A stretch of 64,000 nucleotides of DNA, taken from the NCBI GenBank assembly GCA_029258725.1, contig JAPDKE010000022.1, positions 10,881-74,880 on the forward strand. Reading direction: 5' to 3'. Below are positions 20,389-50,239 of the stretch, in pieces. Made by a program: the position numbers and the translations under genes. This DNA comes from a bacterium. Lineage in GTDB: Bacteria; Hydrothermota; UBA3072; JAPDKE01. How positions within the stretch are numbered: the stretch's first letter is position 1; each line of letters opens with the position of its first letter. The notes under the pieces were generated by a model. The model searched no databases. It was not told the origin of the DNA and saw only the letters and a list, made by a program, of their open reading frames with translations.

Positions 20389-21576
20389 ATGAGGATAAGG
20401 TTTTTCCTTTTTCTTCTTCTGTTTCTTCTTGTCTATGAGACCGGGCTGGTTGTTTTTACCGATTTTTTAAAAAGACCGCCCTGGGTGGATGAGTGGCATT
20501 TCGTTCCGACGATAAAAAAATTCTGTGAGGAGATAAGTTTAAGGACCATTAAAAATTACGAGGAATACTCCACCCCCCTTCCCTTTATTCTCTATGCCCT
20601 CTGGGGAAGAGCATTTGGCTGTGAACTCATGAGTTTGAGGATTTTCTCACTTATAATAGCATTTCTCACCTACATTTCCTTTTATTTTCTCTCTTTTTCT
20701 CTTCTCAAAAATGAAAAGCTATCCCTTGCACTTACCCTCTTTCTCTCCCTGAACCCATACATGATAGGGCTGAGTGTTTTTGTATATACCGACATGATAA
20801 CCATTTTATTTCTCATTCTTGCCATGTTCGGGATTTTAAGAAAAAATCCCCTTTCTCTGTTTCTCTTTTCTGCCTGTGCCCTTCTTTCAAGACAGTATTC
20901 TGTGTTTTTCCTCACAGGGGCAGGGATTTACTTTCTTGTAAAAGCGATAAAAAATGTTGAAAGAAGGCGTTCTCTCATTATGATATCCGCAATTTTTGCT
21001 TCATGCATTCCCCTGCTATTTCTCTTCTTTTTGTGGAAGGGCCCCTCCCCCATTGGATTTCCCGAAGGAGAGGCAGGTTTCCATATGAATTCCCTCTTCC
21101 TTTACATTCTTCTCTTTCCTGTTTACCTTCTCCCCATCCTTATCTTCAGGTGGAGGTTTATTTACCAGGAGAGAAAAAGGCTTCTTTTTGCTCTTCTCCC
21201 TGCATCTCTTTACTTCTTCTTTCCTGTTACCCCCTCCCCATTTGCCGTGAGATGGAATATCCACACCGTGGGATTTTTCCACAGGTTTCTTTTACACCTT
21301 CTCAAAAACCGGTGGGCTGTCCACTGCGTATTTTTCCTCTTTTTCTGGGCAGGTCTTCTTCTGGTTCATGCGATGCTCAGGGATATTTATTTCCGCATGA
21401 GAAAAAGCATACCTGATATTCCCCTTTTGCTTGACCTGATTACAATTTCCTTCCTCTTTATAATGCCCTTCTCCTATCTCCACTGGGAAAAATACATCAT
21501 TCCCCTTTTACCATTCCTTTCCATCAGGCTTCTTTTTCCATTCCGGGTCTCTGTCAGATGGTTACCCCATGAGTGA
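20389..21576 (+). CDS. GT-C fold membrane glycosyltransferase (GT39/GT83, ArnT/PMT-like)
   Basis: 395 aa and polytopic, with a DE motif in the first extracytoplasmic loop (RPPWVDEWHF), as in ArnT/PMT family enzymes. Confidence 0.55.
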   Translation: MRIRFFLFLLLFLLVYETGLVVFTDFLKRPPWVDEWHFVPTIKKFCEEISLRTIKNYEEYSTPLPFILYALWGRAFGCELMSLRIFSLIIAFLTYISFYFLSFSLLKNEKLSLALTLFLSLNPYMIGLSVFVYTDMITILFLILAMFGILRKNPLSLFLFSACALLSRQYSVFFLTGAGIYFLVKAIKNVERRRSLIMISAIFASCIPLLFLFFLWKGPSPIGFPEGEAGFHMNSLFLYILLFPVYLLPILIFRWRFIYQERKRLLFALLPASLYFFFPVTPSPFAVRWNIHTVGFFHRFLLHLLKNRWAVHCVFFLFFWAGLLLVHAMLRDIYFRMRKSIPDIPLLLDLITISFLFIMPFSYLHWEKYIIPLLPFLSIRLLFPFRVSVRWLPHE

Positions 21577-21643
21577 GAGCACATTTATGCTTGACAATAA
21601 AAAAGTTTTTGGATATGGTATCAAAAACAAAAAGGAGGTGTTG

Positions 21644-22027
21644 ATGAAGGCATTGAGAATTCTCATGCTTGTTGTTGCCCTCGGGATGGCGGTGCTTCCA
21701 GCAGTCCTCTATGCACAGGAGGAGGCATGCGTTGAGGCAAGGATGGATGCACAGAGAGAGGTGAATACCGGAATGTGGTTTGCAATAGGTTTCTTCCTGG
21801 GAGTGGTGGGCTGGCTTATAGCCTATGTAATGGAACCGTCCCCTCCTGCTGCAAAACTCATAGGAGCAGACCCGGAATATGTTGCCGTTTATACCCAGTG
21901 CTACAAGGCAGAGGCAAAGAGACTCCAGGCAGATGCAGCGTTGAAAGGCTGTATAGTATATAATCTTTTAGTGTGCGCATGTTATGCCTGTTACCTTGGA
22001 TTACTCTCCTCATCAACATCCTACTAA
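21644..22027 (+). CDS. Small secreted/membrane protein, hypothetical
   Basis: Start taken at the ATG preceded by AAAAGGAGGTG. It has a signal peptide (MKALRILMLVVALGMAVLPAVLYA) and one further TM helix. Confidence 0.4.
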   Translation: MKALRILMLVVALGMAVLPAVLYAQEEACVEARMDAQREVNTGMWFAIGFFLGVVGWLIAYVMEPSPPAAKLIGADPEYVAVYTQCYKAEAKRLQADAALKGCIVYNLLVCACYACYLGLLSSSTSY

Positions 22028-22651
22028 ATGTTTTTTCTCTTCGCTCTTTTCCTTGCAGATTTTGAAAGATATGTAAAGGTGGATGGTGAGGAAAATCTGA
22101 CAAAGGGGGAGATTTATTACATCTCCCCCTTCCACTTTTATCTGAATGTGAAGGAGCCTTTAAGACAGGTCTTTTTTGAGAGGGGAGATACACTTATCAT
22201 TTATTACCCCCTCCACAAAAGAGCGTTCAAATTTCATCTCCTCAATCCCTTTTCCCTTCCGCTCCTTGCAGAGGTAAAATCTGTTAATATCGCCTTGCTC
22301 CGCCTCGGGATGCGGATCCTCAGGAAAGAAACCAATGGAGAAAGAAACAGATTCATCTGGACCTCATCTGCTGGTGAGTATGTGGAGATTGAAGAGGAAA
22401 AGGGACATATCGTCTATTTCAAATATCTTCACAAAAAAATGGGACTGAAGACAGAGATTAACTTTTCGAAATTCATCAAAATTGAAAATTCATGGATTCC
22501 AACGGAAATTACTGCCACGGGAAGTGGTAGAGGAAAAAGAGTAAGGCAAAAATGGTTATTTTACAATGTCCGGACGGACATTGCCATCCCCGATTCCATA
22601 AAAAATTTCAAAATCCCCCAGGGAATCCCTGTGGAGGTAGGGGAATTATGA
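22028..22651 (+). CDS. Hypothetical protein (possible LolA-like fold)
   Basis: 207 aa with hydrophobic N-terminus, no recognisable motif; tightly packed with neighbours. Confidence 0.3.
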   Translation: MFFLFALFLADFERYVKVDGEENLTKGEIYYISPFHFYLNVKEPLRQVFFERGDTLIIYYPLHKRAFKFHLLNPFSLPLLAEVKSVNIALLRLGMRILRKETNGERNRFIWTSSAGEYVEIEEEKGHIVYFKYLHKKMGLKTEINFSKFIKIENSWIPTEITATGSGRGKRVRQKWLFYNVRTDIAIPDSIKNFKIPQGIPVEVGEL

Positions 22652-23010
22652 TATTCCTGCTTCTTTCCTTTTATGAACCGGGGTTTGAGCCCGCGGTTAA
22701 GATAGAAAAGAAAAAGGAAGAAAGGGAATTCAACGAATACCGTATGCTTACCCTCTCTATCATAAGAATCTATCAGGTTACACTTTCAGGCATCATGGGG
22801 GATGTCTGTGTATTCGAACCCTCATGCTCCCATTATGGTTATCAATCAATAAAAAAATACGGGATTTTCCTGGGTCTCCTTATGACCTTTGACCGTCTTG
22901 AAAGGTGCAGTCCCTTTGCAAGGAGTTACTATCCTGACTTTTACGGTATGGTGTATGTTCCGGGAAGGGGATACAAACTCTACGACCCGCCGGAGGAGAA
23001 CCTGCCATGA
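22648..23010 (+). CDS. yidD: Membrane protein insertion efficiency factor YidD
   Basis: The VFEPSCSHYGYQSIKKYG motif matches the YidD/DUF37 signature. Start taken at the internal ATG that overlaps the upstream stop. Confidence 0.7.
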   Translation: MIFLLLSFYEPGFEPAVKIEKKKEEREFNEYRMLTLSIIRIYQVTLSGIMGDVCVFEPSCSHYGYQSIKKYGIFLGLLMTFDRLERCSPFARSYYPDFYGMVYVPGRGYKLYDPPEENLP

Positions 23011-23699
23011 TAATGCTCTTTTTCTTAACCGAGGTTGAAACTTTCTTAAATCCCTCCCTGGTTCTCAAGTTTGCACAGGAACTTGAAAGAGAAGGGGATA
23101 CATTCCGGGCAATCACGGAGTATAAAAGATATGCATACCTCGTTCCTGAAAAAAGGGACTCTATCTATTTCCATATCGTGCGTCTCTACATGCAGGAAAA
23201 ACTATACCCGAATGCACTTGATGTTCTGATAAAAATAAACAGGAGGGATACGGTATGGGAAAATCTTGCAGGATATCTTCTTCTCAAAACTGGAAATCAT
23301 GAGGAGGCGGGAAAATATCTTCATGGAAAAAAGAGGGCACTTTTCTTTGCATACACCGGAAAATACGACAGTCTCAAACTCATAATCCCTGTTGAACCTC
23401 CGGAGCTAAAGAGCAAACTCTATGCAGCATTTCTCTCTACCATTGTTCCAGGGCTTGGAAGGATGTATGCGGGAAGGGTGGGTGATGGTATCTTCTCTTT
23501 GCTTGCCATTTTTGGAACAGGAATGAATGCATATTACATGTATGAGAAGGGAAACAAACCCCTCTTTTACTTCAATGTTGCCCTTGCGGCCGGGCTTTAT
23601 CTTGGAGACATATACGGTTCCTGGGTTGCCGCAAAGAGGGAAAATGAAAAAAGAAAAAGGAAGTTCATTGAAAAGGTTGAAGAGGAAGTTCTGAAATGA
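23007..23699 (+). CDS. Hypothetical membrane protein with N-terminal TPR-like region and TM2-like Gly-rich helix pair
   Basis: 230 aa; the C-terminal LSTIVPGLGRMYAGRVGDGIFSLLAIFG is reminiscent of TM2-domain signatures. Confidence 0.35.
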   Translation: MIMLFFLTEVETFLNPSLVLKFAQELEREGDTFRAITEYKRYAYLVPEKRDSIYFHIVRLYMQEKLYPNALDVLIKINRRDTVWENLAGYLLLKTGNHEEAGKYLHGKKRALFFAYTGKYDSLKLIIPVEPPELKSKLYAAFLSTIVPGLGRMYAGRVGDGIFSLLAIFGTGMNAYYMYEKGNKPLFYFNVALAAGLYLGDIYGSWVAAKRENEKRKRKFIEKVEEEVLK

Positions 23700-24328
23700 T
23701 GCTGATTTTTTCATTTTTCGCAGATTCACTTTTTTCTCAAAAAGACTTTTACCGGGCAGCCTCAGAATACATGAGACTTGCCTCTGCAGGATTAATTCAT
23801 CCTGCTCAGGGATACCTGCGCGCCGGAGAGTGTTATTTTCTTTCCAGAAGATATAGAAGGGCTCAGGACTTCTTCTCCCTTGCACTTCTCTACGCGGAGG
23901 ATTCCCTTACGGAGAAAGAGGCACAGGAAAAACTGTGCCTTTCGCTCATTCTCTCAAAGAAATACGAAGAGGCACTGATTGCATCCACTGGAAAACTTAA
24001 AGAATACCTTGAGGAATACTTCAATCCTTCAGGAGAGAAAACCGCGGTTTTCCTTTCGGCAATTATTCCAGGCTCGGGGGCAATCCTTGAAGGGGAAGTT
24101 ATAAAAGGGGTTATATCCTTTGCAGTAAACGCATACTTTGCATATTCCACTTATGAGGCATGGAAGGACAGAAACTATATAATGTTTTTCCTGAACGTCT
24201 CCTCTTTCCTGAGATACTACTTCGGTAACCTCCGCTTCACCAGGAGTGTGGTGAGGAAGAAAAAGGAGAAAAAACTTCTTGAGAAAGTGAGAGCCTATAT
24301 TACCTCACAGGTGGAGCAAAACTTTTAA
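23696..24328 (+). CDS. Paralog of the preceding gene (TPR-like + TM2-like membrane domain)
   Basis: 210 aa with the same architecture (LSAIIPGSGAILEGEVIKGVISFAVNAY); ATGA overlap with the upstream gene. Confidence 0.35.
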   Translation: MMLIFSFFADSLFSQKDFYRAASEYMRLASAGLIHPAQGYLRAGECYFLSRRYRRAQDFFSLALLYAEDSLTEKEAQEKLCLSLILSKKYEEALIASTGKLKEYLEEYFNPSGEKTAVFLSAIIPGSGAILEGEVIKGVISFAVNAYFAYSTYEAWKDRNYIMFFLNVSSFLRYYFGNLRFTRSVVRKKKEKKLLEKVRAYITSQVEQNF

Positions 24329-24893
24329 CATCCTCCCTGTTGACCACAAGGCTCCTCACAACTCTTCCAAACGCCTCTCTCTGTCTTTTTGTCACCTTCC
24401 TCGGTGTTATTACTCCCTCCCTGTACACTATCCTGTATCTTATCTCCGGATACACCTTTATTTTTCCACCGACATACCTGAGGGGACATATTCTCAGGGA
24501 GACTATTTTGTATCCGCTTATATTCCCAGTATGTACAAGTTCAACCACATTTTCAGGATATGCCTTTTTTCCTTCATACACCCCAGGGTCAGGAGAAACA
24601 AATCTTCTCTTTACAGGGAATGAAATCGGAACCGGAGGCTGGGCAGGATAAGGGGTATATTTTCCTAGGACGTAGACACCGCTTGTCTCAATCTCTATAT
24701 CCTCAACCCTGGCATCCGGGGGAATTACAAACGAAATAACCTTTGCAGGAAGCATAGGTTTTCCAGTGTCAGTAAGAAAACCAAATCCCTTTATTCTGAA
24801 AAGGTCATATCCCTCAAGTTTTTCTACCCTTACCATACTTTCATCTAAAGTAAACATTCCTCCAACAAAGCCTGAAAAAATAAAGAACAGCAT
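24300..24893 (-). CDS. Stand-alone peptidase C25 (gingipain) propeptide-like domain protein with N-terminal signal anchor
   Basis: 197 aa. GKPMLPAKVISFVIPPDARVEDIEIE ... PDPGVYEGKKAYPENVVELVHTGNISGYKIVSLRICPLRYVGGKIKVYPEIRYRIVY matches the Propeptide_C25 pattern (PVLP...P.Y...yP...v......RG.rv..l.i.P..Y......l.vy..i...v.y). A strong RBS (AAAGGAGGAG) sits 5 nt upstream, immediately after the C25 stop. Confidence 0.5.
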   Translation of the reverse strand: MLFFIFSGFVGGMFTLDESMVRVEKLEGYDLFRIKGFGFLTDTGKPMLPAKVISFVIPPDARVEDIEIETSGVYVLGKYTPYPAQPPVPISFPVKRRFVSPDPGVYEGKKAYPENVVELVHTGNISGYKIVSLRICPLRYVGGKIKVYPEIRYRIVYREGVITPRKVTKRQREAFGRVVRSLVVNREDVKSFAPPVR

Positions 24894-24906
24894 TTTCTCC
24901 TCCTTT

Positions 24907-27900
24907 TTATTTTACAATGACTATCTTCTCTGTATCGGAAACTCTGCCGTTCTCTATTCTCAGGAAGTAAACGCCAGGATGCTCTATGGTGAATTTTGCC
25001 CTGTGATATCCAGCTTTATGAACCCCTCCCTTTATCTTCTTTACCTTCCTCCCAGCACCATCGTACAGGGTGAGACACACATATTCCTTTTGAGGAACGG
25101 TGTAGATAACCGTTACCGCGCCCGCTGAAGGGAGAGGATACACCCTCTCTATACCAAGTCTTAAAGCCACGGGGCCTGTGGACGCCAGAAACGGTCCATA
25201 TACCTTTTTCTTCCCTTCACCCACTGCCCTCAACCTGTAGAAGTAGGTTTTTCCCTTCTCAATATCTGTGTCAAGATAAGAGTATGTATGCCTTCCACTT
25301 CCTCGCCTTCCCGGAATCCGTGCTATAACCCTGTATTCCTTTCCTTTTTCCTTTCTTTCTATTTCCCACCTCTCCGTATTTTCATCCATAACAACCCATC
25401 TGAACATTATTCCTTCCCCGATGAAGTATGCCATAGCAGTTATAAAGTTGAGAGAAAGCGTGGTTTTTGCAAGAATGTATCCTTCATAAGGAAGGAGATT
25501 TTCTCCGGTAACCGTGACAAATACCGTCTCTTCCCTGGAGGGATTGACAGTAAAGACTGCCTCTCCATTTATATCCGTGGTATCTCTAAGATAAACATCA
25601 AAATCTCTGGTGGCAAGTGTAACAAGTGCATCCTCCACCGGAGCCTTTGCCGTGTAAACTTTTACCGTGCACTGATTTGCATTTCCCACCTCAATCTCCG
25701 CAGGATGTGTAACAGAAAGGGCAACAGGAATGTCAGTCCATATCGGTGTCTCAGGGTCTCCAAACAGGGTATGTTCATAAAGAACCCATCTGAAGTAATC
25801 ATCGGATGATGCCGTTGGAACCAGCTGGTCCTTTGCTGCAAAGAACACCTCTCCAAGACGATATAGAGAGGTCCCAAAGAGTTTCCGATAAAACCACACA
25901 CTGAGTTCTCCCGAGGGACCAAGGGCTCCCTCTGGTGACGAGTATCCCCATCCGTACCTTGTGTTCATTCCTGTTCCAATGGCGCAGGAGGTATTTGAGT
26001 TCACCATAACTTCCGCCACACAGTCATATCCCGACGATGAACCAGCCTCATCCAGTGCTCCCATGAAGCATGCTATGGAATTTACAAATATCGTGTTATT
26101 CGCAGGGTTTGTCTGGTTTCCCACATCGGAGTAGTAATAATATATCTCGCTTCCATAATCGTAGTAAATCCCATATTCATTTCCATGCCCCACCCAGTGT
26201 CCTATGCTGAATCCGGAATTTATGGAGTCAAACACAGTATATCGGGAAAGAAGCCCATAATCTTCATAAAGCTTTGCCTTCTTCCATGTATCCGGGACGG
26301 TATCGGCAATTGTGTCATTTATTCCATTCCCATGATTTGTGCTCCAGAGGTTTCCAACAGGAAGCAGTATCTTTCTTATATAATCCGGGTCAGGATTCTT
26401 CTCATAAGCCAGTATCTTCTGGACCATGTTGCTTATCTGGGTTGTATTTTTTACCGGGAATCTTCCCACGTAAACATCCGCATACATATCGACCTGGTCC
26501 GTTGTCTCGCCGTAAACTCCATCCCCATCATAATCCCATGTTCCATCAAGATCTGCATAGTAGAGGTCACATGGAATGGTGTCCTCATCGGAATAGTATC
26601 CGACACCACTTGTCATGCAGTATGCATCCCTTCTGGGCACATACTCCTCACCATGCTCAAAGTCGCACTGCCCTGCAAGGACAACATAAATAACTCCCCT
26701 GTTCACTGCATCTATTATGTAATTCCTTATTTTCTCTGCATTATCGGTTCCGCTGTAATACTTGTATATGGTCTCAACAGGCATTACCGCGGCAGGAACT
26801 CCTTTCTTCGTTTTCCACCATATGAGGTCTGAAAAGGCACTTCTGAATGCCTCAGGAGTTATTATCACATACTCAGTATCCCCTGGCGCTCCTCCACCTC
26901 CTCCACCAGATGCCCAGGAGAAACTCTGGGAATATATATTATCCGTCTCATCACTCTCATCCACGGTATCTGTCGTATCGGCATAGATTTTGAGAGTATG
27001 GGTTCCAGCGGTGAAGGTATCTATGTAATCTTCAACGTATGCATAGTAATTTGGAGGAAGTGTATCACAGTACCATCCTGCTATGGGAATGTCGTCACAA
27101 TAGAGATAAATGTAGAAGTAAAACGCAGTATCAGAACCATTGTTTATTATTGCCCAGTCAATGTAGGTTGTGGAATCCCCCATGAGATTTGGTCCATAAG
27201 TATGTGTGTTGGGTTCAGAAGATGGAACTATAGGACCATCCCATCCGTCAGGAGTATAATAGGTGAGATTTGGCATGCTTGCAGGTTCCCATTCAAGGCT
27301 ATCAATCTCAAATCCCCATCTGGTAACACTGTTATCGCTTTTAAGAACAACCTTCATGTAATTTCCGTCTCCCCAGCTGGTCCAGAAGTTGGTCCCCACA
27401 CTTCCGGTATATGTATTCACAAGATTTCCACTTCCATCGTAAACATATACACTGTCGTAGGAATGTTCTGTTTCAAGCCTTGCAAAGTGAAGTCTCATCC
27501 TTATATCTCCCGCATCCTGTGGTCCGTAAATGAAGTATGCCTGATTAGCATAATCTGGATAGTTGTGGGGAGACTCAACATTGTGCTCACGGAAGAAGTT
27601 GTACCAGTCAGAATACCATCCATAGTCGGTAATACTTCCATCGCTTTTAAGCCTTGTTGCTTCGGTTGGCTGTTTGGTATAATCCTGATTATATGAGGAC
27701 CATTCACTCCACACTCCCCTATGGGTTCCCGTCCAGGTATTGAGCACTGTTGAGGAATCTATGTCATAACAGAAAACCGAATCATAGGAATATTCCGTCT
27801 TTATGGAGTCGTAATAAAATATGAGTTCTCCAATCCAGTCATTTGCAGGACCAGACATGTAAACCGTGGTATCCATGTTATTGAGGTAGGGGTGAGGGGA

Positions 27901-28395
27901 CTCATAGGGTCCGCACCATCCACCAACCTGAATGTAGTTTACATCAAATCCATATTTTGTAACCGATGCGTCGCTCTTTATCCGCACGGTAAAAGTGGGT
28001 CCATCTCCCCAGGATGTCCATGTGGGACCATATGCACCCGTAAAGTAATCCACAAGATCTCCATCATTATCATAGACAAAAACAGTATCGTATCCGCTTT
28101 CAACATCTATCGTATCAAAGTGGATTGTCATCCATACATTTTCAGGAGGTCCATAAACCTTATAGGAAATGTCCATACTGTTCCAGTAGGGATGGGGAGA
28201 AGAAATGTACGCAGGAAGAACAGTACCCTTTGCCCTTTTAATTCTTTCAGTCACAGGATGAGGAGCCACAGGATAGATTGATTGCCCAAAGGACATCCGG
28301 ACCGGTTCCCTTATCTCCTTTACCACCAGGGGTTCCCTTACCTCCTTCACCTCCGTCCTTAAAATGGGTATGGTAAACAAAAGAATGTAAATCAT
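24907..28395 (-). CDS. Secreted C25-family (gingipain/PorU-like) cysteine peptidase with three N-terminal CUB-like domains and C-terminal Ig/FN3 + T9SS-type sorting domain
   Basis: 1162 aa. After the signal peptide come three ~95-aa repeats (ESPHPYPN...YGP...I.L.F..F.TE..YD.V.VYD..G.LV...TG...W.S..........KSD.SVT..GF...Y) that match the CUB fold pattern. The C25 catalytic domain follows (IITPEAF..WK..KG, YVVLAGQ, His in SIGHWVGHGNEYG, Cys in VNSIACFMGALD), and the protein ends with an FlgD-Ig/Por-type CTD (..GVYFLRIENGRVSDTEKIVIVK). Confidence 0.75.
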   Translation of the reverse strand: MIYILLFTIPILRTEVKEVREPLVVKEIREPVRMSFGQSIYPVAPHPVTERIKRAKGTVLPAYISSPHPYWNSMDISYKVYGPPENVWMTIHFDTIDVESGYDTVFVYDNDGDLVDYFTGAYGPTWTSWGDGPTFTVRIKSDASVTKYGFDVNYIQVGGWCGPYESPHPYLNNMDTTVYMSGPANDWIGELIFYYDSIKTEYSYDSVFCYDIDSSTVLNTWTGTHRGVWSEWSSYNQDYTKQPTEATRLKSDGSITDYGWYSDWYNFFREHNVESPHNYPDYANQAYFIYGPQDAGDIRMRLHFARLETEHSYDSVYVYDGSGNLVNTYTGSVGTNFWTSWGDGNYMKVVLKSDNSVTRWGFEIDSLEWEPASMPNLTYYTPDGWDGPIVPSSEPNTHTYGPNLMGDSTTYIDWAIINNGSDTAFYFYIYLYCDDIPIAGWYCDTLPPNYYAYVEDYIDTFTAGTHTLKIYADTTDTVDESDETDNIYSQSFSWASGGGGGGAPGDTEYVIITPEAFRSAFSDLIWWKTKKGVPAAVMPVETIYKYYSGTDNAEKIRNYIIDAVNRGVIYVVLAGQCDFEHGEEYVPRRDAYCMTSGVGYYSDEDTIPCDLYYADLDGTWDYDGDGVYGETTDQVDMYADVYVGRFPVKNTTQISNMVQKILAYEKNPDPDYIRKILLPVGNLWSTNHGNGINDTIADTVPDTWKKAKLYEDYGLLSRYTVFDSINSGFSIGHWVGHGNEYGIYYDYGSEIYYYYSDVGNQTNPANNTIFVNSIACFMGALDEAGSSSGYDCVAEVMVNSNTSCAIGTGMNTRYGWGYSSPEGALGPSGELSVWFYRKLFGTSLYRLGEVFFAAKDQLVPTASSDDYFRWVLYEHTLFGDPETPIWTDIPVALSVTHPAEIEVGNANQCTVKVYTAKAPVEDALVTLATRDFDVYLRDTTDINGEAVFTVNPSREETVFVTVTGENLLPYEGYILAKTTLSLNFITAMAYFIGEGIMFRWVVMDENTERWEIERKEKGKEYRVIARIPGRRGSGRHTYSYLDTDIEKGKTYFYRLRAVGEGKKKVYGPFLASTGPVALRLGIERVYPLPSAGAVTVIYTVPQKEYVCLTLYDGAGRKVKKIKGGVHKAGYHRAKFTIEHPGVYFLRIENGRVSDTEKIVIVK

Positions 28396-28522
28396 CCTGC
28401 ACCTCCCCTTTTTGGGATCTCTTTAATAAAATTATAAACAAATTTCGTGCCATTTTATAAGTTTTTGATTTTCAAGGACTAAATTTTGAAGTGGGTAATT
28501 TTTTCACACCTTTCATCTCATT

Positions 28523-40463: not shown

Positions 40464-40540
40464 TGGTGGGCGAAAGAGGATTTGAACCTCTGACCTCCGG
40501 TATGTGAGACCGGCGCTCTAACCAGCTGAGCTATTCGCCC
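40464..40540 (-). tRNA. tRNA-Val (anticodon CAC)
   Basis: Manual fold of the minus-strand sequence GGGCGAATAGCTCAGCTGGTTAGAGCGCCGGTCTCACATACCGGAGGTCAGAGGTTCAAATCCTCTTTCGCCCACCA gives a canonical cloverleaf. The T-loop is GGTTCAAAT and the CCA end is encoded. Confidence 0.85.
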
Positions 40541-40550
40541 ATCCTTTTCC

Positions 40551-40627
40551 AATTATTTCCTCCCTCATGTGGTGGGCCCGGGAGGATTCGAACCCCCGAC
40601 CCGCTGATTATGAGTCAGCTGCTCTGA
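40551..40627 (-). tRNA. tRNA-Met (anticodon CAT), elongator type; could alternatively be tRNA-Ile2 (lysidine)
   Basis: Minus-strand GGGCCCGTAGCTCAGCTGGTCAGAGCAGCTGACTCATAATCAGCGGGTCGGGGGTTCGAATCCTCCCGGGCCCACCA. G1-C72 is paired and the anticodon stem lacks the three G-C pairs of initiators, so it is not an initiator tRNA. CCA is encoded. Confidence 0.8.
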
Positions 40628-40681
40628 CCAGCTGAGCTACGGGCCCATCTATAAGTATATATACCCGATTTTTTTTCATTG

Positions 40682-43340: not shown

Positions 43341-44488
43341 ACTGCTTCCTTTACAAACGCAAACAGTGTAAAGGATGCAAGAAAGGCAAGCACCGCGCCA
43401 AAGAGAAATGCATGGAGTTCACCGAAGCGCTGCCAGATAAAACCAAAGATAGCACTTCCAGGAAGGGCAGAAAGACCTACTGCAAGATGATATAGTCCGA
43501 ATGCCGTTCCTCTTTCTTCCTCCTTTGCAAGGTCTGCAACAAATGCCTTTTCAACCCCTTCTGTCAGACCAAAGTATATCCCGTAAAGGGCAAAGAGGGC
43601 CCATATATGCCAGTTTTTGTTTGAAAGACCGAAACCAAGGTAAATCAGGGCATAAACCATCCATCCTGCAATAATAACTCTTCTTCTGCCGATTCTATCA
43701 GAGAGGAGTCCTCCTGGGACCGAGGTCAACACCTTTACCAGGTGGAGGAAGACCCATATTAAAGGAAGAAATGCAATCTTTATCCCTGTGTTCTGTGCCT
43801 TTAAGAGCAAAAACGCATCGGAGGAATTTCCAAGAGTAAAGAGAATTAACGAGAGAAGATAAAGTCTGAAGTTCATTGAGACAGGTCCAAGCCTCCATGA
43901 AGTCTTTTTTATACTTTCCCCAGCCTTTTCCTCCACAAAAAATATAAGAATGAGAAGTGCGAGGATTCCTGGAATGAATGCAAGGAGGAATAAATGCCTC
44001 AGGTCCATCCCAAACCCGAGTATCATCCACACTGCAAAAAGGGGACCAAGAACCGCACCGAGATGGTCCATTGCCCTGTGGAATCCGTATGCAAATCCCC
44101 TTACCTCAGGAGAGGTGGAATCCGCAATGAGCGCATCTCTGGGTGAAGTCCTTATCCCCTTCCCAACTCTGTCAAAAAATCTTATCAAAAGCACATGAAT
44201 CCAGGAGGTTGCAATTCCTGTGAGGGGTCTTCCAAAAACCGCAAGGGAATACCCTGCAACAACAAGCCCCTTTTTCTTTCTTATCCGGTCGGAAATATAT
44301 CCCGAGAAAAATTTTAAAATGCTTGCTGTTGTTTCCGCTATCCCCTCTATAACCCCGAGAACAAACGCCCCTGCACCAAGAACGGAAGAAAGAAATGCAG
44401 GAAGTAAAGGATAGATTATTTCACTTGCCGCATCATTAAAAAGACTGACAATCCCGAGAGAAACGACATTTTTTGAGAGTTTTTTCAT
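43337..44488 (-). CDS. MFS transporter
   Basis: 383 aa with 12 predicted TM segments and MFS signature loops (GYISDRIRKKKG; LSDRIGRRR). Confidence 0.8.
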   Translation of the reverse strand: MKKLSKNVVSLGIVSLFNDAASEIIYPLLPAFLSSVLGAGAFVLGVIEGIAETTASILKFFSGYISDRIRKKKGLVVAGYSLAVFGRPLTGIATSWIHVLLIRFFDRVGKGIRTSPRDALIADSTSPEVRGFAYGFHRAMDHLGAVLGPLFAVWMILGFGMDLRHLFLLAFIPGILALLILIFFVEEKAGESIKKTSWRLGPVSMNFRLYLLSLILFTLGNSSDAFLLLKAQNTGIKIAFLPLIWVFLHLVKVLTSVPGGLLSDRIGRRRVIIAGWMVYALIYLGFGLSNKNWHIWALFALYGIYFGLTEGVEKAFVADLAKEEERGTAFGLYHLAVGLSALPGSAIFGFIWQRFGELHAFLFGAVLAFLASFTLFAFVKEAV

Positions 44489-45102
44489 TCCTCCTCCACG
44501 AAGAAACTGAGATACTCAAGTTCCATTGTGAGGTCAACATCGTGAATAAATACACCTGGAGGAGATTTTATACTGGCAGGGGTAAAATTCAAAATTCCCT
44601 GGATACCCGCATTTATTAGAATACCGGCAATATCCGGAGCAACATCAGGAGGCGTTGTAAGAATGGCAATCTTTATCCCCATTTCCCTTACAACCCTTGA
44701 AATTTCACAATCAGAATATACCGGAACCCCATGAATTCTCCTCCCCACCTTGTTTATATCGGCATCAAATGCAGCAACTATCTCGACCCTCTTTCTGAAA
44801 AATGGGGAGGCAAGAAGGGCAGTTCCGAGATTTCCAGCCCCAATAAGTATAGCCCTCCTCGGTTTTTCTATCTTCAATATTTTTCTCAATTCTTTTATCA
44901 ATTTTTCAATCTCATAACCCATCCCCCTCTTCCCCATCTTTCCGAAGTAAACCAGGTCCCTCCTTACCTGGGTATCAGTGAGGTCAAGCCTTTCAGCAAG
45001 TTCCTTAGAGGATACATACTCCTTTCCCTCTTTCTTCAGTCTTTCCAGGAGATGAAGATAAAAACACAATCTTTTAACCGTAGCAGGAGGTATCCTTCCC
45101 AT
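44485..45102 (-). CDS. rex: Redox-sensing transcriptional repressor Rex
   Basis: 205 aa. It has the N-terminal winged helix (IPPATVKRL.FYLHLL) and a Rossmann NADH-binding domain (AILIGAGNLGTAL), and is collinear with B. subtilis Rex. Confidence 0.85.
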   Translation of the reverse strand: MGRIPPATVKRLCFYLHLLERLKKEGKEYVSSKELAERLDLTDTQVRRDLVYFGKMGKRGMGYEIEKLIKELRKILKIEKPRRAILIGAGNLGTALLASPFFRKRVEIVAAFDADINKVGRRIHGVPVYSDCEISRVVREMGIKIAILTTPPDVAPDIAGILINAGIQGILNFTPASIKSPPGVFIHDVDLTMELEYLSFFVEEE

Positions 45103-45180: not shown

Positions 45181-48100
45181 TTACCTCAGGTACACCGTCT
45201 TCAGTCTTCCCTCGTAGTCGGGTGCCGTCATCCTGAAGATGTAGATTCCGGATGCAACCCTTCTTCCACTCTCGCTGGTTCCATCCCATCTCACCACATG
45301 ATATCCAGGCTCAAGTTCGCCATCAACGAGTGTCTTCACCTTTCTTCCCATCACGTTGAACACCTCAACCTTCACATGCGCCCTGTAAGGAACACCAAAT
45401 CTCACGGAAGTAGCATTGTGGAATGGATTCGGTGAAGCACCAAGCAGTGCAAACTCAGCAGGTGCACCAACCCTGTGCTCAACGGATGTTGTAGCAAGAT
45501 ACTCAACCTTACCACCCTTCATCATTCCGACTCTGTAGATGTATGTCTCACCGATCTTTACATCCACATCCAGATACTCATAGGTATTTGGTCTTGTAGC
45601 CCTGGAAGGCTCAACGCGGGCAAGTTCGATCCAGTCATCACCATTCTTCTTTTCAAGAACCCATGCATCAACGTTGGAATTGGAAGTGCTCCAGGTGAGC
45701 TTCACACCAGCAGGGGTTGAGATACCATAGAAGTTGGTAAGGTAGGTTGCAAGGGTTACAAGAACATAGGACTCAGGTGAGCTGAACGGGCTTGATGTGT
45801 AGATATTGTATGCCTTGAAGGCATAGTAGTAATCGTAGTTATTGAAGTCAAGTCCGGTGTCAATGAAGTATGTGTCTGGAAGGGTGTATTCATTGGGTGC
45901 CACAACAACTCCAACTCTCGTGTATGCCTTCCTTGGAGGCACGCCCGTATTTTTACCCTTGGAAACCGCCTCCCTGTAAATCACGATGCTGTCCGTGAAC
46001 TCCCACCATGGTCTCTGATGCCAGTGGAGTGTGCATGCGGTCTGGCTTCCTGTTCTTGTAATCTTGTCCGTAACAGGGACAGGAGGTCTTGGAGCAACGA
46101 GGGGCTCAACATCAAAGCACCAGACCTTGAACTGGTTCCAGTCCGCCTGCCAGAGGTAGTATGGAGGCTGCCATGCATTATCGTAGAGGAGACAGGAATC
46201 GGGCTCTTTAACATCCTGAGAAGGTGGCCAGAACTCCTGAAATGGCTCAAGATAACGGTCTGGCTGGAATCCTCTTCTTACAACGGACATCCAGGTTGCT
46301 CCTCCAACCGCCTCTGCACCGCTTCCATAGGTGGTCCACCATGCCCTTCCATCCCATGCAAGCCCTCTTCCATTTGGCATGAACCATGCGGAATCCGCCT
46401 CTATGAGATAGGAATCATACCTGAGCTGTCCATTGGGTCCATGATATCCAAGTGTCTCGGCAACGGGTGGAACCCTGTCAAGTGCAGGGACTGCAGCACC
46501 TATGGAATCGGGGTCATCGTCTTCTCCATTACTATCTCCACTGTAGTAGTCATGCCACCATGCGTAGAGTCTGAAGTTGGAGTAATCAGGATAACCTGAA
46601 GATGTAATGGTGGGTCCTGCGTCAACTCCCCTTATACGCTTGACCTCCGTTCCATCTCTTCCTGCCCTCGCTGCATAAACCGTTGCCTCCACATACAAGG
46701 CAGTAAGTCTTGTGAGGTCTCCTCCGGAGACCGTGTATTTGTAAAGCGAGTCTCCTCCTGTAACCCAGAGGGTATCGGTTCCTGGCCAGAATTCTGCACC
46801 CATTGGATATCTGTCCTGAGAGTAAGAAAGTGCTCCTATGCGGCTTGGATTCTTGGGATCGGCTACATCGTAGTAATCACCGCCCCATGTCTTATCGCTG
46901 AAGTTCACCCGGAACACGTAGAGATAGTCGTTGACATCATCAAATGCAATGCCAGAGGGGTTTGGATAGTTATCGTTGGTGAAATCCAGAGTTGCAATTA
47001 TGTGCTGATGGCAGGTCTGGAGAATAAATGTGCATGTATCATTCCCCTGATCCGATGTTATTGCTATCCTCATCCTGGCACCATAAAGAGGAGGAGTGTA
47101 GACGGAGAGCCATATCCTGAATGGTGCACTGGAATTCCATACGGTGTCTGCAGCACCATGGGTGATGGTTCCGTATGAGACAGGTCCACCATTTATCACC
47201 TTCACATAATTTTCATCCTCACCAGGTATAAGAGATGCATCTACATTGGTAAGGTCCACGGATGTTCCAATGGGCTGATAGAGTCCTATGTAAACATCAA
47301 GGGTCTCCCCGGGTTCAGGAATTGTATCTCCATCGTTGGAACTCGCTATGGTGGTAAGGTCTTCCACATTATAATCTGCCACAGCAATCTTTGTTCCTCC
47401 ATCTCCATATATCTTATTCCTCAACCACTCCCATGCCCTCACCAGGTCTATCATACCCCATCCGTAGGTATTGTCATTTCCGGCATCTCCCTTATCCTTC
47501 GCTGTTACCATCAGTGCCTTCTTTATTGTATCCATGCATGCAACACCATACATCTTCTCAAGGGTATCACCAAAGATGGAGTAAAGCAGTCCATATGCAC
47601 CGGTTACATGGGGGGTTGCCATTGAGGTTCCCCATCCTGTCTCATACCAGTACTGCTGCATTCCCCTTCCACTCCACTCCCTTCCCATACAGGATATAAC
47701 CTCTGCACCAGGAGCACACACCTCTGGTTTGGTATCCTCTCCTCCCTGATTACAATCTGAGGGACCGCGTGAGGAGAACTTACACGCAGTATCTGCCTCC
47801 TGTCCATTCTCATAGTGCTGGACCACTGCTCCAACCGAGAAAACACTGTAGTCGGTATAGTTATTCTGTCCTGGAGAACAGGCAGTGCTTGCGTCAGGAC
47901 CATCGTTTCCTATGGCAAATATCATTGCAACACCAGCGGCCTCTGCATTTTTAATCCTGTCATCATCCTGAGTTACGCATCTCGAAGAAGAAGAGTATCC
48001 ATAGGAGTTATTTGCTGCAACAGGAACATCGTCAATCGTTGAGGAATTGCCATCCGGGTCTGCAACCCACTGCTGGCAGTCATCCATGTAGTTGAGGTCT

Positions 48101-48993
48101 CCAGGACCCTGAGAGGCTCTGCATCCTATCCACATTGCCTCCGGAGCAACACCAACCGGATGTGTCCCGTCCTCCTCCATTCCAACCATGGTGCCGGTCA
48201 CATGGGTTCCGTGGGTGAAGTCGGTGGGTCCCGGGTCTCTTGGAAGCCACTTTTCCTCCGCAGTGGCTCCTCCTGGATAGTAGAAGTACTGAGTATCACT
48301 CGCCGCATGCCAGAGGGTATCCCCATACACCAGGTAATGCTTCCACTTCCAGTAAAGTGCAGGGTGGAATGCATCCACACCCGAGTCAAGAGTTGCAAGA
48401 AGAACCCTGTCCCAGGAAGCAGCCCTTCCACTTCCATCACCGCCATTCGTGACCTTCACCATCTTCCCTCTGTACCCCATGTTCCACAGTTCAGGGGCAT
48501 GAATGTGTCTTATATGCCAGACCGGCTGGGTTGGGTCTATTTTCGTAGGGTCATAACCACCTATCTTCACAGGTCTTATCAGTTTCGGAGGAACAAATTC
48601 TCTCACAAGATATACCTCAGGTAATGCCGCAATCTGCTCTATTATGTCCCTGGTTGCAGTGAGCTTCACATAGTTTGCAATCCACATCGGTTTGTACCAG
48701 GAAACCTTACCCTTTGCCTTACCAGCCTTCGCTATCTTTATCACATTTTTCTGGGTCCGCCTTGCTGTTTCCCTCAAACCATCAATAACCGCCTTGTGAA
48801 TCTCCGCAAAGGTCCTTCCCTCCTCGGTCATCCTGTTCCTCACTGCCCAGGCATCAAACTGCTCCACCATCTCCACAACAACCGTAAACATATCCTGAGG
48901 GGATGCCTTCTCGAGTTTCTGCCTGAGGGAATAGGAGATGGTACCACCCATCAAAAACATGGGTAAGACCATTAAAAGAAGCAAGCGCCTCAT
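45181..48993 (-). CDS. Secreted subtilisin-like serine protease (peptidase S8) with N-terminal I9-like propeptide, large C-terminal extension and T9SS-type sorting domain
   Basis: 1270 aa. Signal peptide, then the catalytic triad motifs ATLDSGVD (Asp), HGTHVTGTM (His) and GTSMATPHVTG (Ser). The C-terminus is a CTD (LLGASPNPFHNATSVRF...GIYIFRMTAPDYEGRLKTVYLR). Confidence 0.85.
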   Translation of the reverse strand: MRRLLLLMVLPMFLMGGTISYSLRQKLEKASPQDMFTVVVEMVEQFDAWAVRNRMTEEGRTFAEIHKAVIDGLRETARRTQKNVIKIAKAGKAKGKVSWYKPMWIANYVKLTATRDIIEQIAALPEVYLVREFVPPKLIRPVKIGGYDPTKIDPTQPVWHIRHIHAPELWNMGYRGKMVKVTNGGDGSGRAASWDRVLLATLDSGVDAFHPALYWKWKHYLVYGDTLWHAASDTQYFYYPGGATAEEKWLPRDPGPTDFTHGTHVTGTMVGMEEDGTHPVGVAPEAMWIGCRASQGPGDLNYMDDCQQWVADPDGNSSTIDDVPVAANNSYGYSSSSRCVTQDDDRIKNAEAAGVAMIFAIGNDGPDASTACSPGQNNYTDYSVFSVGAVVQHYENGQEADTACKFSSRGPSDCNQGGEDTKPEVCAPGAEVISCMGREWSGRGMQQYWYETGWGTSMATPHVTGAYGLLYSIFGDTLEKMYGVACMDTIKKALMVTAKDKGDAGNDNTYGWGMIDLVRAWEWLRNKIYGDGGTKIAVADYNVEDLTTIASSNDGDTIPEPGETLDVYIGLYQPIGTSVDLTNVDASLIPGEDENYVKVINGGPVSYGTITHGAADTVWNSSAPFRIWLSVYTPPLYGARMRIAITSDQGNDTCTFILQTCHQHIIATLDFTNDNYPNPSGIAFDDVNDYLYVFRVNFSDKTWGGDYYDVADPKNPSRIGALSYSQDRYPMGAEFWPGTDTLWVTGGDSLYKYTVSGGDLTRLTALYVEATVYAARAGRDGTEVKRIRGVDAGPTITSSGYPDYSNFRLYAWWHDYYSGDSNGEDDDPDSIGAAVPALDRVPPVAETLGYHGPNGQLRYDSYLIEADSAWFMPNGRGLAWDGRAWWTTYGSGAEAVGGATWMSVVRRGFQPDRYLEPFQEFWPPSQDVKEPDSCLLYDNAWQPPYYLWQADWNQFKVWCFDVEPLVAPRPPVPVTDKITRTGSQTACTLHWHQRPWWEFTDSIVIYREAVSKGKNTGVPPRKAYTRVGVVVAPNEYTLPDTYFIDTGLDFNNYDYYYAFKAYNIYTSSPFSSPESYVLVTLATYLTNFYGISTPAGVKLTWSTSNSNVDAWVLEKKNGDDWIELARVEPSRATRPNTYEYLDVDVKIGETYIYRVGMMKGGKVEYLATTSVEHRVGAPAEFALLGASPNPFHNATSVRFGVPYRAHVKVEVFNVMGRKVKTLVDGELEPGYHVVRWDGTSESGRRVASGIYIFRMTAPDYEGRLKTVYLR

Positions 48994-49660: not shown

Positions 49661-49733
<73 letters not shown>

Positions 49734-49747
49734 TTTTTAAAAATACG

Positions 49748-50239
49748 ATGCTGAGATATCTTATGGAGGAAGAGAAAAAGAGACTTTTTTCTATTGCAGA
49801 GAAGAAGGATTATCAGGAGGGAGAGATTATCTTCTCCGAGGGGGATAAAAACAAGGAAATGTATATCATTGAAAAAGGGAAGGTAAAGGTATTTCTGGAA
49901 AGGGAAGGTGAAGAGATAGAACTTTCAACATTTTCAGAAGGAGAATTTTTTGGGGAGATGGCATTGTTTACAGGAAGGGAAAGAACCGCATCTATAAAGG
50001 CAATAGAACCCACCACCCTTCTTATATTTAAAAGGAAGGATATGGAGAGACTTATAGAAGAGCATCCAAAGATAGGGGCAAAGGTTCTTTTTGCCGTAAT
50101 AGAGGAAATTTCTGAAAGGCTTGCCAGAACAAACGAGGAATTTGAGACCTACTACCTGATTCACCGGGCCCTGCGGGAGAATCCCGGTTTCAGGGAAATG
50201 TTTTTGAAAATGATAAGGAAAAATGGAGGTGGAAGATGA
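49748..50239 (+). CDS. Stand-alone cyclic-nucleotide-binding (cNMP/CAP effector-type) domain protein
   Basis: 163 aa with the FGEMALF...RTASIKA phosphate-binding cassette and no DNA-binding or other output domain. Confidence 0.65.
   Translation: MLRYLMEEEKKRLFSIAEKKDYQEGEIIFSEGDKNKEMYIIEKGKVKVFLEREGEEIELSTFSEGEFFGEMALFTGRERTASIKAIEPTTLLIFKRKDMERLIEEHPKIGAKVLFAVIEEISERLARTNEEFETYYLIHRALRENPGFREMFLKMIRKNGGGR

Follow-up and report, generated by a model that had tools for sequence, protein, structure and literature searches.

Gingipain-family prodomains are the textbook case of cis latency in the clan CD bacterial proteases, and they have been explored as inhibitor templates. We compared with them a two-gene locus in a stretch of 64,000 nucleotides (nt) of bacterial DNA (Hydrothermota; contig JAPDKE010000022.1, positions 10,881 to 74,880 of the forward strand), the whole of which is called the window below. 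At this locus a C25 peptidase gene without a prodomain of its own is followed by an open reading frame (ORF) of 197 amino acids (aa). We consider it likely that this ORF encodes the prodomain of the protease as a polypeptide of its own, and that C25 peptidase and prodomain, in this order, form an operon of two genes. The ORF resembles the gingipain prodomains (RgpB, 4IEF; Kgp, 5MUN; PF08126) in fold, in detectable homology, in its length of about 200 residues and in a basic end that corresponds to the place beside the catalytic-domain start. The partner, like the gingipains, belongs to the C25 peptidases, with a His/Cys dyad and with a C-terminal domain of the type IX system for secretion (T9SS). 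By contrast, the prodomain of the window is a separate gene downstream of the protease, so that no proteolytic release would be needed, and in its loop a Pro-rich motif is conserved, in place of an Arg/Lys mimic of the P1 residue.

Several elements of such an arrangement are already known: free-standing propeptide-homologue inhibitors, co-transcribed inhibitors of T9SS proteases, and separately encoded steric chaperones. Stand-alone propeptide-like inhibitors are also found in the MEROPS families I9 and I29. The Lif/LipB foldases of Pseudomonas and Burkholderia are separate, operon-linked periplasmic "steric chaperones" that replace an intramolecular pro-sequence and are left behind at secretion. 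The lipase system shares with our locus a separately encoded, operon-linked partner replacing the pro-sequence of a secreted hydrolase; on the other hand, there is no homology, and Lif is alpha-helical and membrane-anchored, with a lipase as its client and secretion by the type II system. Kagawa and colleagues reportedly described in 2005 the streptopain (SpeB) inhibitor Spi of Streptococcus pyogenes, a propeptide homologue encoded directly downstream of the protease. The likeness is a small propeptide-homologous inhibitor gene immediately following a cysteine protease gene, but SpeB retains its propeptide (Spi being an extra copy), Spi is cytoplasmic, and the clan (C10) and fold are unrelated. 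The Plasmodium SUB1 propeptide-like protein is a free-standing propeptide homologue inhibiting the mature enzyme (PMC6993865). Inhibitors of this type differ from our case in family and fold, in target enzymes that retain their own propeptides, and in genes that do not form an operon. The potempins of Tannerella forsythia are small proteins co-transcribed with T9SS-secreted peptidases, which they specifically inhibit (PMC9890683). They are outer-membrane lipoproteins, unrelated to propeptides and encoded upstream, whereas the 197-aa protein has a predicted prodomain fold and an N-terminus without the Cys of a lipobox; on these two grounds we rejected a potempin-like lipoprotein identity for it. 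What sets our case apart is an enzyme of family C25 without its own prodomain and with a trans copy instead, seen more than once and with either gene first. In the literature searched on C25 propeptides, the T9SS and metagenomes, no description of the split arrangement was found, which is weak evidence given the thin coverage of subscription journals, and that searched on separately encoded propeptides and foldases gave only analogues in other protease families.

The locus and its parts are as follows.
24907-28395, minus strand: C25 peptidase gene, 1162 aa, TAA stop at 24907-24909
27286-28218, minus strand: three CUB-like repeats of the protease, aa ~60-370 (Pfam CUB E=1.1e-10, two stretches)
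26929-27177, minus strand: CARDB domain of the protease, aa 407-489 (Pfam PF07705, 34.9 bits)
25726-26880, minus strand: C25 catalytic domain of the protease, aa 506-890
24916-25143, minus strand: T9SS type A C-terminal sorting domain of the protease, aa 1085-1160 (TIGR04183, Por_Secre_tail)
24894-24906, minus strand: intergenic spacer of 13 nt, with the ribosome-binding site AAAGGAGGAG at 24897-24906
24300-24893, minus strand: free-standing prodomain gene, 197 aa, ATG at 24893-24891
23696-24328, plus strand: convergent neighbour gene, 210 aa, weak TPR/DUF5683 matches; outside the system

The ORF coordinates and the spacer sequence agree with an earlier note on this DNA, which had described a 197-aa ORF with its own ribosome-binding site 13 nt past the protease stop. 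On the coding strand the spacer reads 5'-AAAGGAGGAGAAA-3', and its GGAGG core lies 5 nt upstream of the ATG of the prodomain gene. A promoter and terminator scan of the window, in which the number of sites was not above that of shuffled sequence, gave no terminator-like site in the 13-nt spacer. The 3' ends of the convergent gene and the prodomain gene overlap by 29 nt (24300-24328), and no terminator-like hairpin was seen in this overlap either.

The assignment of the small ORF rests on sequence profiles and on a structural model. Its sole Pfam match was Propeptide_C25 (PF08126; E=1.6e-4, profile positions 52-200 of 205). An exhaustive HMMER search with the ORF against 1.84 billion representative proteins returned 2554 matches at E<1e-3, 737 of them at E<1e-10, the best at E=1.8e-36. 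Nearly all of the top 150 were proteins of 600-3000 aa, aligned across their N-terminal ~15-215 residues. A C25 catalytic domain was also present in 135 of the 151 homologues retrieved, and in these fused forms it began a median of 11 residues past the prodomain match; for a sample of them, Pfam gave the order Propeptide_C25, Peptidase_C25, T9SS domain. When the single 197-aa sequence was compared with the PDB sequences by phmmer, nothing relevant was found, and a profile search of the PDB was therefore needed. The family profile, made of 49 prodomain segments plus the window ORF, matched the Kgp prodomain (5MUN_A, E=3.6e-17) and the RgpB prodomain (4IEF_A, E=2.9e-11). For structure prediction with AlphaFold2 (AF2), the sequence without an alignment gave an unusable model (pLDDT 35), which was replaced by one based on a 49-sequence alignment (pLDDT 95.9, pTM 0.88). 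With this model Foldseek found only six significant chains in the PDB, all of them RgpB (4IEF) or Kgp (5MUN) prodomains, with template-modelling (TM) scores of 0.68-0.69 and 0.53, probability 1.00 and 181-190 aligned columns; sequence identity in these alignments was just 13-19%. The gingipain propeptide pattern that the earlier note had seen in the ORF is thus upheld by three kinds of comparison, and the model shows that the ORF encodes a complete gingipain-type prodomain fold, as far as a predicted structure can. The most conserved segment of the prodomain is the loop P83-x-Q85-x-P87-x-P89-[ILV]-S91 (P83-x-Q85-x-P87-x-P89-I-S91 in the 197-aa protein), which aligns with the gingipain inhibitory loop; P83 is found in 152 of 152 sequences and Q85 in 147 of 152.

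The protease comprises, in order, a short hydrophobic N-terminus, three CUB-like repeats, a CARDB domain, the catalytic domain, a C25 Ig-like domain (found by Pfam), a further region and the C-terminal sorting domain. Propeptide_C25 was absent from its 1162 aa in the Pfam scan. The CUB-like repeats follow directly on the signal-like N-terminus, which is the position of the prodomain in fused relatives. This bears out the earlier statement that the protease has no N-terminal propeptide and has CUB-like domains in its place, with the addition that CARDB also precedes the catalytic domain. CUB domains are known mostly from animal extracellular proteins. The Peptidase_C25 (PF01364) match covers aa 509-883 with 194 bits. 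His737 and Cys776 align with the catalytic His and Cys of RgpB (4IEF_B, 1CVR), and every one of the 77 family members compared has both, while Asp694 aligns with the RgpB S1 residue Asp163 in a column that is D in 45 of the 77. With its dyad intact, the peptidase is apparently active. TIGR04183 scored 37 bits against a cut-off of 23, and Pfam Por_Secre_tail 25.9 bits, so that the protease is predicted to be T9SS cargo. An identity as the PorU-type T9SS sortase was considered and rejected: NF033707 reached just 64.6 bits against its equivalog cut-off of 420, far below what would be needed, which leaves a cargo peptidase and not PorU. For the 197-aa protein, neither Pfam nor NCBIfam gave a T9SS sorting domain.

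How the two proteins belong together can be read from fused relatives. The closest in architecture is P0043 (1092 aa, C-terminally truncated), one of the fused C25 peptidases of uncultured FCB-group (Fibrobacteres-Chlorobi-Bacteroidetes) bacteria. It consists of a signal peptide, Propeptide_C25 (22-215), a linker of ~40 aa, three CUB domains, CARDB and C25. It is 46% identical to the window protease over 866 aligned columns, with window residues 13-867 aligned from P0043 residue 254, so that the alignment opens right after the prodomain region of P0043; the CUB-like repeats of the window protease align to P0043 residues ~300-612. By its domain set and order, P0043 is the architecture of the window protease with the prodomain still attached N-terminally. 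A second fused protein from this group, P0010 (790 aa; prodomain, C25, T9SS domain), shares 56% identity with the window protease, in an alignment that opens at window residue 506 (DTEYVIIT) and at residue 217 of P0010, directly past the P0010 prodomain. P0010 and P0008 are the nearest relatives of the catalytic domain, and both are also among the best prodomain matches; the prodomains of P0043 and P0010 are 34-36% identical to the window ORF. These fused proteins differ from our locus in carrying the prodomain in cis, N-terminally and behind a canonical signal peptide, rather than as its own gene. The CUB-like repeats were seen, beside P0043, in a partial protease gene of contig L057 (...VYCYDLDNITTLNTWTGDADGVWSG).

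The domain boundary gives a second link. The window prodomain ends in ...FAPPVR197, with K at this position in the Logan contig L001, and the R197 column is R/K in 38 of the 40 fused homologues where it is aligned. In fused homologues this column is followed by a linker of 8-20 aa and then by the first catalytic strand, "EYVIIT". The RgpB processing site between Arg229 and Tyr230 is what we take to correspond to the end of the window ORF. By analogy, the R/K column is probably the site where prodomain and enzyme are cut apart. If the fused homologues are cut there, the window protein matches a released prodomain.

The earlier note had suggested a survey of other genomes for the same two-gene arrangement, and it turned out that the arrangement is not unique to the window. 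In about ten lineages, a free-standing prodomain gene and a C25 gene without a prodomain are neighbours on one strand, with gaps of -4 to +15 nt. The gene orders are as follows.
Peptidase then prodomain: the window and L001
Peptidase then prodomain: L053/54, with P0020; protease of 958 aa (CARDB, C25, C-terminal domain)
Peptidase then prodomain: L052, with P0098
Peptidase then prodomain: L005, 671-2926, with P0095; protease of 535 aa
Peptidase then prodomain: L055, 4574-6633, with P0113; protease of 476 aa
Peptidase then prodomain: L018
Prodomain then peptidase: L002, with P0141
Prodomain then peptidase: L003/L004, with P0116
Prodomain then peptidase: L057, with P0035
Prodomain then peptidase: L043-46, with P0152; protease of 1513 or 1757 aa

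For this survey, HMMER matches of ~200 aa that ended at the same boundary were traced to their loci. A word-indexed protein search gave 2 to 7 relatives even with alignments, and the survey was therefore based on the exhaustive search and locus look-ups. It is a sample, biased by one loop motif (from a 5-sequence alignment) and by what the look-ups returned, and the ratio of fused to split forms is no unbiased census. Genuine free-standing forms were 8 among the top 150 representative clusters. Several split lineages recur in many independent contigs with constant protein length. The split proteases have their own signal peptide wherever the 5' end is on the contig, and the free-standing prodomains of the split lineages have no T9SS domain. 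The ~200-aa proteins are called "hypothetical protein" in every source that gives a name, and the C25 gene beside them could serve to annotate them.

Two of the split lineages, L055 and L005, have minimal proteases (476 and 535 aa) without N-terminal extra domains, which indicates that splitting is not simply due to domains inserted between prodomain and catalytic domain. In L055 the prodomain gene overlaps the protease gene by 4 nt (ATGA), and no Por_Secre_tail match was recorded for the protease.

Broken fused C25 genes on metagenome contigs can be mistaken for free-standing prodomains. One example is P0067 (L056, 339-1462), in fact a fused gene that an in-frame stop interrupts, with frameshifted catalytic sequence after it; it was removed from the count. 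In L031, L037, L038 and the first gene of L021 (4278-5189), fused C25 genes are split within a domain. Such broken genes are either pseudogenes or assembly errors. Adjacent tandem pairs of fused prodomain-C25 genes were seen in L013 (5905-11602) and L021 (4278-10930), which suggests local duplication of C25 genes in these lineages.

Several observations weigh against taking the ORF as the protease's own prodomain in trans. A PF08126 search had been proposed in the earlier note as a check, and its outcome is divided: Propeptide_C25 was matched, but at 21.3 bits, missing the gathering cut-off of 22 bits by 0.7 bit. The threshold was passed by the 76%-identical orthologue P0002 and by the free-standing homologues P0141, P0152 and P0020. 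In the segment that aligns with the inhibitory loop of the gingipains, no column is conserved as Arg/Lys, and the mode of inhibition may therefore differ from the Arg126-in-S1 mode of RgpB; the window protein has K95-R96-R97 five to seven residues downstream of the conserved loop. The window protease groups with the proteases of L003 (51% identical) and L043 (48%), both with the prodomain gene upstream. The window prodomain, however, is ~29% identical to the L003 and L043 prodomains and 38-40% identical to prodomains from fused proteins. Simple co-inheritance thus does not account for the pairing, and the protease and prodomain relationships imply that, within this clade, the gene order changed or another prodomain took the place of the old one. 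A canonical signal peptide is lacking in the 197-aa protein, with ~8 residues before strand 1 and no basic n-region, and the protein may not reach the periplasm. Finally, the Kgp prodomain has been reported as a poor trans inhibitor, so that trans inhibition is not family-wide (PMC4138498). The same source also gives the precedent for our reading: the mature Rgp enzymes are inhibited in trans by recombinant Rgp prodomains, at low-nM Ki and with the inhibitory loop (Arg126) in the S1 pocket (PMC4138498).

On balance, the 197-aa protein most likely acts in trans as a latency or folding partner of the neighbouring protease, which it would bind and might inhibit. In the mechanism that we propose, Sec would export both proteins. 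The free prodomain would then bind, in the periplasm, non-covalently to the side of the catalytic domain, like a cleaved gingipain prodomain. Once bound, it would aid folding, block the active-site cleft through the Pro-x-Gln-x-Pro-x-Pro-Ile-Ser loop, or do both. Because the prodomain has no sorting domain, the enzyme would be activated when the T9SS carries it to the surface, with the prodomain left behind or degraded. In effect, the zymogen would be "pre-cleaved" at the gene level. A more specific version, doubtful as yet but worth stating, is that activation is coupled to export: the prodomain would stay periplasmic and be reused as a chaperone and inhibitor, and T9SS translocation would strip it off with no proteolytic cut. 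If true, this would give secreted cysteine proteases a new kind of latency logic, and it would be a natural probe of whether the T9SS separates or co-exports non-covalent complexes. More generally, natural C25 enzymes with a separately encoded prodomain would mean that covalent linkage is dispensable in vivo. The roughly ten lineages offer ready enzyme/inhibitor pairs for separating the folding role from the inhibition role, and they raise for the T9SS the question of what becomes of a non-covalently bound partner without a sorting domain.

The alternative that survives best, though we think it unlikely, gives the prodomain another job: a permanent non-covalent subunit or adaptor, or a periplasmic or surface "immunity" inhibitor of the cell's own or of competitors' C25 peptidases. 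The missing sorting domain, which uncouples the fate of the protein from that of the protease, would suit such a role, as would the loop without a conserved basic P1-like residue and the closer similarity of the prodomain to unrelated fused proteins than to split systems with the closest proteases. The T. forsythia potempins also show that co-transcribed inhibitors of T9SS proteases can be defensive (PMC9890683). Nevertheless, all ten of the ten genuine split cases keep the prodomain gene in tight operon linkage to a prodomain-less C25 gene, the domain boundary falls exactly at the R/K column, a fused counterpart of the same architecture exists in P0043, and the window holds a single C25 gene, all of which argues for the prodomain as partner of its neighbour.

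Whether the 197-aa protein is exported matters for the next alternative. Its N-terminus starts with MLFFIFSGFVGGMFTLDES and has 16 uncharged residues (MLFFIFSGFVGGMFTL), which the earlier note had taken for a membrane signal anchor. This part of the note was not supported: 16 residues are too short compared with the usual ~18-20 or more, they partly belong to strand 1 of the fold, and there is no Cys in the N-terminus of the protein and hence no lipobox. In the model, residues 7-15 form the first strand, which lines up with that of the homologues, and MLFFIFSG aligns just with the tail of their signal peptides. Ordinary signal peptides that look cleavable are seen in the other free-standing prodomains, for example MKITRAIIAIFLVFAFVQAG before E; the exception is P0035, in which the called ORF starts late and the N-terminus is missing. 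The N-terminus of the window protease (MIYILLFTIPIL, then RTE) is equally short, uncharged and hydrophobic. Since the protease has a T9SS domain it must leave the cytoplasm, and its similar N-terminus indicates that such N-termini may be export signals here. The hydrophobic character of the prodomain N-terminus is also kept in L001. From these features, export of the 197-aa protein is plausible.

Staphostatins act in the cytoplasm. By analogy, the protein might not be exported at all and might serve as a staphostatin-like safeguard against the protease folding before Sec export. We regard this as somewhat less probable still than another job for the prodomain. The short MLFFIFSG stretch before strand 1, the want of a basic n-region and of a clear signal-peptidase site, and the precedent of staphostatins as co-operonic inhibitors of secreted cysteine proteases (PMC7863939) speak in its favour. 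It sits poorly with the ordinary signal peptides of the other nine free-standing lineages where the N-terminus is complete, with a protease that must be exported and yet has an equally short and uncharged N-terminus, and with the hydrophobicity kept in L001.

A last alternative concerns whether the ORF is a working gene. L001, with 76% identical DNA, retains the whole layout: the 3' end of the protease, its stop, AAAGGAGGG, the 197-aa ORF and the convergent neighbour. The ORFs of the window and L001 have equal length and zero indels, and their ratio of nonsynonymous to synonymous substitution rates (dN/dS) is 0.16 at a dS of ~1, from which comparison the prodomain gene is shown to be under purifying selection. 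A copy 99% identical to the window ORF, with one residue different, is P0001 (NCBI RKZ23522.1, "hypothetical protein"), found in six contigs from independent assemblies, and the two-gene arrangement is identical in five independent assemblies of the source organism. The convergent neighbour and the 29-nt overlap are kept in L001 and L047-L050, and this overlap leaves no space for a lost catalytic domain beyond the prodomain gene. The window has exactly one prodomain and one C25 catalytic domain, with no second catalytic domain or remnant. The remnant of a frameshifted second C25 gene that the earlier note had considered is therefore not what we find. Although broken fused C25 genes do occur in metagenome data (L056, L031, L037, L038 and the first L021 gene), it is very improbable, and effectively refuted, that the ORF is a non-functional leftover, either a fragment left by the decay of a second C25 gene or one gene cut in two by an artefact of assembly or frameshift: the ORF lies downstream of the protease, where no frameshift could join the two, it carries its own ribosome-binding site, it is constrained and recurrent as described above, and, unlike the broken genes, true split proteases have their own start and signal peptide while the prodomain stops at the domain boundary.

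Short hydrophobic N-termini are not limited to the two genes of the operon. Five neighbouring genes (22028-24893; 28360-28395) share an N-terminus that is short, uncharged and very hydrophobic and lacks a basic n-region, with acidic residues behind it.
From 22028, plus strand: N-terminus MFFLFALFLADFE
From 23007, plus strand: N-terminus MIMLFFLTEVE
From 23696, plus strand: N-terminus MMLIFSFFADSLF
From 24893, minus strand: N-terminus MLFFIFSGFVGG
From 28395, minus strand: N-terminus MIYILLFTIPILRTE

The nearby gene at 21569-22027 has a classical signal peptide (MKALRILMLVVALGMAVLPAVLYA). In the source organism, the shared N-termini may be signals for export or insertion that form an unusual class. 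Upstream of the protease ATG (28396-28460 of the window, 2442-2500 of L010), a run of A reads AAAAA in the window and AAAA in L010 (contig Ga0180302_10000585). The 1-nt difference in L010 puts an upstream ATG in frame, giving a 1181-aa call (MARNLFIILLKRSQKGRCRM-IYILLF...) that would supply a basic n-region, while three other assemblies match the 1162-aa call of the window. Either a sequencing artefact or a phase-variable tract may lie behind the difference.

Elsewhere in the window, a second large secreted protease is encoded at 45181-48993 on the minus strand, an S8 subtilase of 1270 aa with a FlgD_ig/CHU_C-like C-terminal (T9SS-type) domain. It had no I9 propeptide at E<0.1. An analogous propeptide gene downstream of it was sought and discarded: the ORF at 44485-45102 encodes a Rex-like regulator (CoA_binding and Put_DNA-bind_N). 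Three tRNA genes, at 40467-40646 on the minus strand and 49661-49733 on the plus strand, were the only Rfam matches in the window. An OmpA-family protein of 735 aa with several CarboxypepD_reg/PEGA repeats is encoded at 50236-52443 on the plus strand.

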